DNA of 64,000 nt, taken from the NCBI RefSeq assembly GCF_050920415.1, contig NZ_CP169310.1; one strand, written 5' to 3'. This DNA comes from Escherichia coli. Lineage in GTDB: Bacteria > Pseudomonadota > Gammaproteobacteria > Enterobacterales > Enterobacteriaceae. Shown in pieces: positions 53,046 to 56,093 of the stretch (position 1 is the first letter of the stretch; every line of letters starts with the position of its first letter). The position numbers were made by a program, and so were the translations under genes. The notes beneath the pieces are model-generated. The model was not told the origin of the DNA and did no database searches. It saw only the letters and a program-made list of their open reading frames with translations.

Positions 53046-53184
53046 AATAATCACGGGAAAGGTAATGTCATTTCTGACAACTGGCCATAAACAGAGAAGG
53101 CGCGTTCATCCCCGTTCCCGAAGGGAAACGGCCTTCCTGAAATCAGGTTGTTCAGTAAGCGGCTCGCCAGAACCGTATTGATAT

Positions 53185-54756
53185 TTACTGAGAGGTCAGA
53201 TCAACTTTCCAGGGCAACAGATCGCGTACCCGGTTTGCCGGCCAGTCCTGGATATGCTCAATGACGTAACGCAGCCATTTTTCTGGTTCCACATTGTTCA
53301 GACGGCATGTGCCGATCAGCGAGTACAACACCGCCGCATGTTCGCCACCGCTGTCGGAACCCGCGAAGAGCCAGTTTTTCCGGCCTACGGCCACTCCCCG
53401 TAAGGCGTTCTCTGCGATGTTGTTGTCGATTTCCACCTGGCCATTACTGCAGTACACGTTCAGGCCATCCCACTGTTTCAGCAGGTATGCGAACGCTTTT
53501 GCCGTATCCGAGTGACGCGACAGTGTTTTCATCTGAGTCTGTATCCAGTCATACAGTGACTGCATCAGTGGCGCAGCTCTGGCTTTTCTTGCCGCCAGAC
53601 GCTGTTCTGCTGTACATCCCCGGACTTCTGCCTCTATGGCATACAGTTCACCGATACGCTGCAGGGCTTCCGTGGTGATGTCGGTGGGCACTCTTGCATG
53701 CACATCGTGGATTTTTCTCCGGGCATGAGCCATACACGCGGCTTCCGTTATTCTGCCGGATTCGTATAACACCCGGTAACCACCGTAAGCATCGGCCTGA
53801 AGCACACCGCTGTAACCGGCCAGATGATTCTGTGGATGGACGCCTTTCCGGTCCGGGCTGTACGCGAACCAGACCGCCGGAGGCATCTGTGAACCGGCGT
53901 TACGGTCATCACGGACGTAGACCCACAGCCGGGCAGTCCTTGTTTTACCACTGCCCGGCTCCTGGACCGGGACGGGGATATCATCGGCATGGACTTTACC
54001 GGGCATCAGCACATACTGGCGCAGGACGTCATACAGCGGCTCCAGCAGTTCAGCAACGGCACCTGTCCAGCGCCCCAGCGTGGCGCGGCTCAGCTCCACG
54101 CCCTGGCGACGGTATATTTCTGACTGGCGGTATAACGGCAGATGGTCTGCATATTTCCCGGTGACAACATGGGCCAGAAGCCCCGCTCCGGCATAACTGC
54201 GTGCAATGGGTTTTGAAGGTACTGGTGCCTGCACGATATGGTCGCACCGGCAACAGGCCAGTTTCGGACGTTGTGCTTCGATAACCTTAAAGGCGCTGCT
54301 GATAAGCTCCAGTTGCTCTGACACATCACATCCCAGAGAACTGAGTTCGCCACCACAGGCCGGGCAGCATTCCTCTTCCGGCCGGATAACCCGGGTTTCA
54401 CGGGGAAGTGAGGTCGGTAACGGTTTACGGGCAGAAGACTGGCGCAGGGGGGATGGCAGTGCCGGGTCATATTGCTCACCCAGCGTTTCTGCCATTTCTT
54501 CCTGAAGTGCGCTGATTCGCTCCTGTGCTTCCTGTATCTGCCGTTCGGTTTTTGCACGAAGTTTTTCTGAGCTTTTACCGAACTGCATACGCTGCAGTTT
54601 CGCAACCAGCGCCTTCAGCCGGTTGATTTCGGAAGCATAAGCCGCCACCCGCTGTGAGAGCAGGCGGTTGTATTCAGCCATCTGGCGGATGGTGTCCTGT
54701 TGTGTCTGCAACAGTGCCCGCAGGCGGGCATTCTCATGAGCAAGTGAGGTGTCCAT
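53185..54756 (-). CDS. tnpC: IS66-family transposase (orf3/TnpC)
   Basis: 523 aa with N-terminal coiled coil, CxxC zinc-finger pair (CCPACGG...CCRCDH) and DDE region, as in IS66 TnpC. Confidence 0.9.
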
Positions 54757-54775
54757 ATCCTCACTTTACATCGGG

Positions 54776-55123
54776 TTATATGCGGATTCCAGCGCGTTCC
54801 GTTCGTTTCGGGTGCTTCCAGTTGATGCCCTCAAGAAGCATGGACAACTGAGCCGGAGTAAGGTGAACCTTTCCATCGCGGGTGACCGGCCAGACGAAGC
54901 GGCCCCGCTCCAGGCGTTTGGTGAAGAGGCACAGTCCGTCGCTGTCAGCCCACAACACTTTTATCTGGTCACCCCGGCGTCCGCGGAAGATGAACAGATG
55001 CCCGGAGAACGGGTCATCCTTCAGGACGTTCTGAACTTTTGATGCCAGGCCGTTAAAACCATTTCGCATGTCGGTGATACCGGCAACCAGCCAGATACGT
55101 GAACCGGCAGGGAGAGATATCAT
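54776..55123 (-). CDS. tnpB: IS66 orf2 (TnpB)
   Basis: 115-aa ORF MISLPAGSRIWLVAGITDMRNGFNGL, the characteristic IS66 orf2 start. Confidence 0.9.
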   Translation of the reverse strand: MISLPAGSRIWLVAGITDMRNGFNGLASKVQNVLKDDPFSGHLFIFRGRRGDQIKVLWADSDGLCLFTKRLERGRFVWPVTRDGKVHLTPAQLSMLLEGINWKHPKRTERAGIRI

Positions 55124-55773
55124 CAGTGGCTGCTCCCTTTCATTTCGCGGATAAGTGTCTGTAATAACGCCGGTGTCAGTTCACCTTTCAGCCTGAGAGT
55201 TCCGGCCGGCAGAACCAGCTCGCAGCACAGACTGTCTGGCAGTGTATTTATCTGTTCAGGTATCTGCACTGGTGCCGGGATTTTATTATCCGGCTCCGGA
55301 GTTAACGTCACGGGAAGTAGCGATGTTTCATGTTCGCCGGGCGGCTGCAGGCCGCCGTTACGCCAGAGATGCCGCCAGTTAAAGAGCAGGTTATCGTTGA
55401 TTCCGTTCTCACGAGCTATTTGTGCGACACAGGCACCGGGTAAAAGAGTCCGCTGAACAAGTCTCCATTTAAACTCCGGTGAAAATCGGTTCCGGCGGGG
55501 TTTCTCTGCTTTCACAGGCTGAGTCACGGTCGGGGTTGAAGGATATCGCCCCGGGAAAAGAGCCCGGGCCAGTTGCCCGCAGGAATATTCACCGGAAAGG
55601 GGCCAGTCAGTGAATACCTGGTGAAATCGCCTCACCAGAGAAAAAATGGCGGTTTTGCTGACACCAGTCTGCGCAGAAATGCGCGGGTACGACAGTGACT
55701 CGTCAAATCTCAGCTGTAGCACACGCAGGATCAATTCCGGATTATCTGCCAATACCGCCTTTCGTGCATTCAT
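55123..55773 (-). CDS. tnpA: IS66 orf1 (TnpA, helix-turn-helix)
   Basis: 216-aa ORF overlapping orf2 start (ATGA), first gene of the IS66 operon. Confidence 0.8.
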   Translation of the reverse strand: MNARKAVLADNPELILRVLQLRFDESLSYPRISAQTGVSKTAIFSLVRRFHQVFTDWPLSGEYSCGQLARALFPGRYPSTPTVTQPVKAEKPRRNRFSPEFKWRLVQRTLLPGACVAQIARENGINDNLLFNWRHLWRNGGLQPPGEHETSLLPVTLTPEPDNKIPAPVQIPEQINTLPDSLCCELVLPAGTLRLKGELTPALLQTLIREMKGSSH

Positions 55774-55960
55774 CTTAAATGTCCTTTTACTGCGAAAATG
55801 GACATTAGTATCGGAAACAGGAAAGGGAGGCGAAAGACGGTTTAAATGATGCGCTTACCTTTCGTGCATTCATCTTAAATGTCCTTTTACTGCGAAAATG
55901 GACATTAGTATCGGAAACAGGAAAGGGAGGCGAAAGACGGTTTAAATGATGCGCTTACGT
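55761..55960. repeat. 100-bp tandem duplication at the IS66 left end
   Basis: 55761-55860 and 55861-55960 are near-identical direct repeats (one mismatch at the last 2 nt), duplicating the IS66 terminal sequence and the first 13 nt of orf1. Confidence 0.85.
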
Positions 55961-56093
55961 TGTTCATGCCCGTACAACATCAGCAAGGAGAAAGGGGCTA
56001 CCGGCGAACCAGCAGCCCCTTTATAAAGGCGCTTCAGCGCAGTCAGACCAGCATCAGCCCTGAAAAGGCGGGCCTGCGCCCGCCTCCAGGTTG

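Follow-up and report, generated by a model that had tools for sequence, protein, structure and literature searches.

The stretch of DNA analysed here, referred to as the window, is a 64,000-nt segment of Escherichia coli DNA (assembly GCF_050920415.1, contig NZ_CP169310.1) that is 99.99% identical to pCFSAN004181P of strain GB089, a conjugative IncFIA/FIB plasmid of 224 kb. The insertion sequence (IS) that is the subject of this work occupies positions 53155-55958. It lies in the leading region of the F-like IncFIA/FIB plasmid, between a repeated leading-region segment and hok/sok, and its insertion point is downstream of the terminator hairpin of hok (55991-56022), at a distance of approximately 25 nt. 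An IS110-family element is located on the other side (Table 1). Three open reading frames, tnpA, tnpB and tnpC, are encoded on the minus strand and together fill the IS. The tnpA stop and the tnpB start overlap by 1 nt, and both genes precede tnpC in the same orientation.

Table 1. Features of the IS and its surroundings (positions refer to the window)
Feature	Position	Strand	Description
IS110-family element near the IS	~51047-52422		
Left target-site duplication copy	53147-53154	.	8 bp, GTTGTTCA
tnpC-proximal terminal inverted repeat	53155-53180	+	GTAAGCGGCTCGCCAGAACCGTATTG
Canonical IS679-like element (inner, complete copy)	53155-55858	-	2,704 bp; 100% identity to the single-end copy in the GB089 chromosome
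tnpC	53185-54756	-	DDE transposase, 523 aa; ORF and Pfam (DDE_Tnp_IS66, 3e-104; zf-IS66; LZ_Tnp_IS66; DDE_Tnp_IS66_C)
tnpB	54776-55123	-	IS66 Orf2 accessory protein, 115 aa; ORF and Pfam (TnpB_IS66, 5e-40)
tnpA	55123-55773	-	Accessory helix-turn-helix protein, 216 aa; ORF and Pfam (HTH_Tnp_1, 2e-16)
Inner 100-bp unit	55759-55858	-	Inverted repeat plus 85-nt leader, followed by 15 nt from the start of the intact tnpA
Novel junction	55851-55866	.	...GCGCTTAC/CTTTCGTG; exact IS terminus fused to internal IS position 100
Outer, extra 100-bp unit	55859-55958	-	Second intact terminus and truncated tnpA start
Right target-site duplication copy	55959-55966	.	8 bp, GTTGTTCA
hok	56094-56246	-	ORF
sok	56250-56426		Rfam

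The element is an IS66-family insertion sequence of the IS679-like kind. The match of TnpC to PF03050 (DDE_Tnp_IS66) scored 348.7 bits, the Pfam cutoff being 23.1. The outermost sequences read GTAAGCG... from position 53155 and ...CGCTTAC up to position 55958. Both termini thus begin with GTAAGCG, and about 17 of 26 positions agree between them (pattern GTAAGCG..TC.....AACCGT.TT), i.e. the ends are imperfect inverted repeats. A preceding sequence-only reading of this DNA had assigned the element to the IS66 family, and this assignment was borne out by the Pfam hits of the three ORFs, by the GTAAGCG inverted repeats and by the 8-bp target duplication. Judged at the level of sequence, gene content, ends and target duplication all correspond to what characterizes the family. 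Co-oriented tnpA, tnpB and tnpC genes, the overlap between the tnpA stop and the tnpB start, and a DDE-type TnpC are features that the element presumably shares with IS679, as are the imperfect terminal repeats of approximately 25 bp starting with GTAAGCG and the target duplication of 8 bp. The canonical length of 2,704 bp also agrees with that of IS679 (primary paper: Han et al. 2001, J Bacteriol), and the name IS679-like is used provisionally. The element is a common and already known E.coli IS and does not represent a new kind of element.

Perfect copies of GTTGTTCA directly abut both IS termini. In the empty-site search, the two flanks were joined through one copy of GTTGTTCA, and the resulting sequence was queried against the plasmid collection. 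The uninterrupted site with a single GTTGTTCA was found at 100% identity in sibling plasmids including AP025742 and CP012501. Plasmids with the empty site include Escherichia sp. 10290 pla1, KS167_9B and HH154_1D, and the empty site of pCFSAN004179G was confirmed by eye. The matching sequence of H71 contained 28 extra bp, away from the insertion site. Because in sibling plasmids the site is intact and contains one GTTGTTCA, the insertion was a clean one, and the 8-bp repeat represents a genuine target duplication, as had been proposed from the sequence. Neither the GTTGTTCA repeat nor the 100-bp repeat described below is a chance match. These data showed that a canonical 2,704-bp IS transposed into the plasmid leading region, duplicating GTTGTTCA.

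Unlike IS679, the copy in the window has an additional, tandemly repeated 100-bp tnpA-proximal end, and the full element with this extra end has three termini and a length of 2,804 bp. Two repeat finders detected a perfect tandem repeat with a period of 100 over the 201 nt between 55758 and 55958 (100% matches, zero indels). The bases just beyond this segment differ, indicating that there are two units and that the register of the junction is ambiguous by 1 nt. The repeated unit corresponds to IS positions 1-100 in the orientation of tnpA. Eighty-five nucleotides of the unit are upstream of the tnpA ATG, and the unit ends with five tnpA codons (MNARK). The inner copy runs on into the intact tnpA gene, and the ATG of the outer copy opens a 22-codon ORF (MNARKVSASFKPSFASLSCFRY) whose stop codon is 32 nt ahead of the real tnpA start. 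The tandem duplication of a 100-bp IS end had been recognized in the sequence-only reading, and the perfect two-fold repeat of 100 bp confirmed it. The coordinates given there (55761-55860 and 55861-55960) were off by approximately 3 nt and extended 2 nt into the flank (see Table 1 for the correct ones), and the proposed division of the unit into approximately 87 terminal nt and 13 nt of tnpA has to be replaced by 85 + 15. At the tnpC-proximal end of the IS there was no corresponding duplication. A tandem-promoter effect of the doubled leader was also considered, and found no support: a simple sigma-70 scan detected no consensus promoter on the tnpA strand of the duplicated leader. The inner unit (2,704 bp) is intact and is expected to remain mobile. 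The outer end constitutes a candidate binding site for the transposase, which is spare and possibly competing.

Other copies of the IS lack the extra end. The copy in the GB089 chromosome (CP013663, 2328020-2330723; L004, 598-3301) is identical over 2,704 bp and is flanked by its own 8-bp duplication CTGTGGTT, whereas the copy on the ETEC plasmid p557 (NC_014233) displays 98.2% identity over 2,704 bp and has the 8-bp duplication TTCCGTTC. Unlike the plasmid copy in the window, both have one tnpA-proximal end each. The possibility that the duplication belongs to the native structure of the IS was rejected, because canonical copies are 2,704 bp long, among them one from the same strain that shows 100% identity. 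Reference-type copies of the element gave the same picture: the single-end form of 2,704 bp is the norm and the duplication is not shared, in agreement with the earlier description of the structure as unusual. The presence of identical copies at multiple different sites implies recent mobility of the IS.

To determine the distribution of the duplication, a 70-nt probe spanning the junction (55824-55893) was run against 5,426 complete E.coli genomes and 72,556 plasmid records of PLSDB. The junction was found in 11 of the complete genomes, once per genome and always on a plasmid, while the IS end was present in 615 of them. Two of the PLSDB records contained the junction, and approximately 1,289 carried at least 80% of the IS. 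The rarity of the junction compared with the many plain carriers of the IS indicates that the element does not natively contain the duplication. In each of the 11 carriers the junction was on the same type of plasmid (217-225 kb, the ~220-kb IncFIA/FIB type), with the IS at one shared site. Two of the carriers, GB089 and 09-00049, are food isolates from the USA, and the other nine are of bovine origin and were obtained in Okinawa. The remaining IS copies in the junction-carrying strains were all canonical. The 100-bp duplication was thereby shown to have arisen once in this plasmid lineage and to have been stably inherited.

It was important to consider the possibility that the duplication is an artefact introduced during assembly or finishing, for example when contigs overlapping by k-1 = 100 are joined untrimmed at a repeat boundary. 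Such an error would create a round length of 100 bp, two perfectly identical units and a boundary on a repeat edge, all of which are seen here. On the other hand, the junction is present in 11 complete records originating from at least two unrelated projects (CP records of US food isolates and AP records of Okinawan cattle isolates), and the carrier plasmids differ structurally in the vicinity: the IS110-family element adjacent to the IS is missing from the Okinawan plasmid that was compared (L002). The junction is internal to the records, at 183.7 kb, 84 kb and ~119.8 kb in three coordinate systems, and an artefact of this kind does not account for the other IS end being without a matching duplication. 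The different neighbourhoods and the internal coordinates across projects make a shared assembly or circularisation artefact very unlikely, and we regard an artefactual origin of any kind as practically negligible. The sequence-only reading had raised this concern, and it is answered by independent assemblies from two continents that repeat the junction. The end duplication is a real and rare variant restricted to one plasmid lineage.

At the novel junction the precise terminal nucleotide of the IS is fused to an internal position, microhomology being limited to 1 nt, and this argues for a transposase-made origin. The breakpoint coincides with the IS terminus, which is the transposase cleavage site, within +/-1 nt; we infer that a random 100-bp duplication within a 2.7-kb element would reach the terminus with this precision with a chance of approximately 0.1%. 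Replication slippage and an aberrant transposition intermediate had both been suggested on the basis of the sequence. Aberrant or secondary transposition fits better with the exact-terminus junction and plain slippage fits less well, and we favour a junction made by the transposase over simple slippage. The end duplication is probably a by-product of self-targeted transposition.

In the mechanism that we propose, a second, identical IS copy would have inserted into the resident copy in direct orientation, with CTTTCGTG as its target at a distance of 100 bp from the tnpA end. The nested stage would have had the structure R[1..end]+I+R[last 100 bp, including target]. RecA-dependent recombination between the two direct repeats of 2.6 kb could then have led to the loss of one IS equivalent, and the end product, [full IS]+[terminal 100 bp] within the original GTTGTTCA duplication, would be the structure seen. 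Inter-sister strand transfer from the same end is an alternative route that would lead to an identical product. In its entirety, i.e. a transposase-made junction arising through direct nested self-insertion and collapsed by homologous recombination, this explanation is one in which we have moderate confidence.

If the junction was made in this way, the sequence next to the inner terminus should resemble a target of the IS. A target profile was derived from 48 distinct target duplications adjoining the same IS end. Their sources were species-representative genomes, with Escherichia sp. MOD1-EC7003 contributing 16 sites, as well as metagenome contigs and three individual copies. The profile has S at positions 1 and 8, T at position 4, A at position 5 and W at position 6, and is weak, containing approximately 1.1 bits in total. 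The 8 nt past the inner terminus, CTTTCGTG, scored 1.82 bits against it. Among all 8-mers of the IS or of the window, this score falls within the top 5%, and it exceeds the upper quartile of the real sites (leave-one-out), whereas the alternative register CCTTTCGT scored poorly. The fit of CTTTCGTG to this weak profile is suggestive of a transposase-made junction.

Copies of the IS679-like element do land in IS66-family elements. An example was found in plasmid CP065616 (L062), where an IS679-like copy is located within a distant IS66-family tnpC, so that here, too, an IS66-family element served as target. The nest in CP065616 is inverted and the target element is divergent (68-83% identity), so this nest is unable to collapse by recombination, in contrast to the direct and identical copies proposed for the window. 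Among approximately 47 other insertion flanks sampled in the genome and metagenome scans none was internal to the IS, and self-targeting is therefore not demonstrably recurrent. The nested intermediate preceding recombination, in which the far IS end would be joined to internal position 93 or 94, had no match in the 5,426 genomes, and no plain 2,704-bp copy was found at this GTTGTTCA site among the plasmids. Literature searches on the mechanism of IS66 transposition returned no mechanistic paper, and the pathway is not known to have been characterized biochemically.

The negative sequence searches agree with two other ways in which the extra end could have arisen. The duplication could be independent of the transposase, originating from replication slippage, template switching or unequal sister exchange, with the breakpoint falling on the last base of the IS by chance. 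Spontaneous tandem duplications are commonly of this kind, being short and perfect and having 0-2 nt of microhomology, and the microhomology at the GCGCTTAC/CTTTCGTG junction is 1 nt (C). Neither the nested intermediate nor the single-copy precursor was found, and the sampled flanks contained no further case of self-targeting. The low prior for a random breakpoint at the cleavage site and the resemblance of the adjacent CTTTCGTG to a preferred target speak against such an origin, which we consider unlikely. Alternatively, TnpC could have nicked or cleaved the tnpA-proximal terminus without strand transfer, and microhomology-mediated break-induced replication could have copied the last 100 bp and the flank a second time. 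The broken end ...GCGCTTAC would then have primed synthesis anew on the sister copy, at a point 100 nt into the IS and with the help of the 1-nt microhomology, and would have generated the exact-terminus junction. No nested intermediate and no second IS copy would be required, in agreement with the outcome of the searches. Such repair at IS66 ends would make the good profile fit of CTTTCGTG a coincidence; we judge it to be distinctly improbable. Sequence alone cannot separate nested insertion from nick-initiated repair.

A further possibility concerns the timing of the events and is compatible with any of these origins. The 2,804-bp form could have been made elsewhere and could have arrived in the plasmid as a whole, transposing by means of its outer end. 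The GTTGTTCA copies do bracket the outer end and the far end, and the absence of a plain copy at the site among the plasmids would be explained. However, no second site with a 2,804-bp form was detected in the 5,426 E.coli genomes, the 72,556 plasmids or the 47 flanks, and the other copies in the carrier strains are canonical, leaving this order of events with little probability. A model in which a solo 100-bp remnant was followed by a later insertion next to it was rejected, because it needs CTTTCGTG as the left flank of the full copy, which is GTTGTTCA.

Tandem IS structures with reactive abutted ends are known from other families, such as (IS21)2 in R68.45, (IS30)2 and the IRR-IRL junctions of IS911. 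In these cases the extra tandem ends are transposase-driven and can alter transposition behaviour. The structure described here differs in that one end meets an internal site of the same element, whereas in (IS21)2, (IS30)2 and the IS911 junctions opposite ends of whole elements are abutted. Also in contrast to them, it is the same end that is repeated in direct orientation, and there is no sign of enhanced activity. We see a slight chance that the junction between end and internal sequence is the preserved footprint of IS66-family movement, for example of replicative strand transfer that is one-ended or sister-directed and starts from the tnpA-proximal end, and that the three-ended element, with its tandem leaders, 22-codon upstream ORF and spare TnpC site, might show an altered transposition frequency or end choice. 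Should the footprint reading be true, this natural variant would be of use in studying the IS66 mechanism.

The practical importance of the duplication is small, and any functional effect of it is hypothetical. For annotation, the locus represents a structural variant of a common E.coli IS, which pipelines label simply as IS66 tnpA, tnpB and tnpC. With regard to mechanism, the locus is a natural three-ended IS66-family element. A junction of transposase origin would be a record of self-targeting in a family of poorly characterized transposition chemistry and would make the element a ready substrate for the study of end choice; the value of the element would lie only in its use as a natural substrate in work on IS66 end recognition. 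The duplication also marks the lineage of the ~220-kb IncFIA/FIB plasmid, which occurs in food isolates from the USA and in Japanese cattle. The profile of 48 target sites, a by-product of the analysis, may help work on IS679-like elements.

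The hok-downstream intergenic region, in which the IS66-family element of the window is inserted, is a recurrent or permissive target of IS679-like elements. Among the approximately 47 sampled flanks of IS679-like insertions three further insertions (loci L048, L049 and L053) were found at most a few hundred bp from the same intergenic region in related F-like plasmids, with both orientations represented. Their positions, together with those of the other features described here, are listed in the table.

Positions of features in the window and of nearby IS679-like insertions in related plasmids
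Feature	Position (window)	Remarks
hok-downstream target region	~52850-53160 and 55959-55990	
L049 insertion	equivalent of 53054	
L053 insertion	~24 nt from the IS66 insertion site	
L048 insertion	~110 nt from 52853	
IS110-family element	51047-52422	CDS 51257-52261, + strand
Direct repeat, ~624 bp	52425-53047 and 60564-61187	leading region; copies 99% identical
Rfam matches	9322-9410, 10217-10374, 47966-48075, 56250-56426	CopA-like RNA, two sok antitoxin RNAs, FinP and traJ 5' UTR

The target profile of the IS679-like element, compiled from 48 target duplications, was weak and roughly symmetric. Positions 1 and 8 were G or C in 67-69% of the targets, T occupied position 4 in 48% and A position 5 in 44%, and at position 6 A or T was present in 77% and C in just two of the 48 sequences. 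Exact matches of the 20-nt IS-end probe were also detected in a Flavobacteriaceae MAG (L008) and in a metagenome contig (L037). These matches lay in a non-IS context, with different upstream sequence and the flank CTTTTAAC. They were regarded as unrelated chance or short shared sequences, and both loci were omitted from the target-site set.

At least 16 contig ends of the draft genome of Escherichia sp. MOD1-EC7003 (NZ_PTRE01; L009-L024) terminated in an IS679-like end, indicating a large recent expansion of the element in this strain. At locus L062 (NZ_CP065616.1, 1441-5229) another IS66-family element, only distantly related, has its tnpC interrupted by an IS679-like copy (96.7% identical) in inverted orientation.

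Comparison of the plasmid records showed that the IS110-family element is shared by the window, GB089 and pCFSAN004179G, the last of which has an empty IS66 site. The Okinawan plasmid L002 lacks the IS110-family element and carries the IS66 end duplication. The distribution of the two elements is not tree-like, which suggests independent site-specific insertion of the IS110-family element, its precise excision, or recombination between plasmids.

The set of Rfam matches in the window is typical of an F-like backbone, and the presence of two sok antitoxin RNAs means that the window contains two hok/sok loci. A vapBC pair is situated between traI and traD. One copy of the direct repeat, which may be a repeated single-strand-promoter or ssi-type leading-region module, stops approximately 100 bp from the IS66 insertion site.
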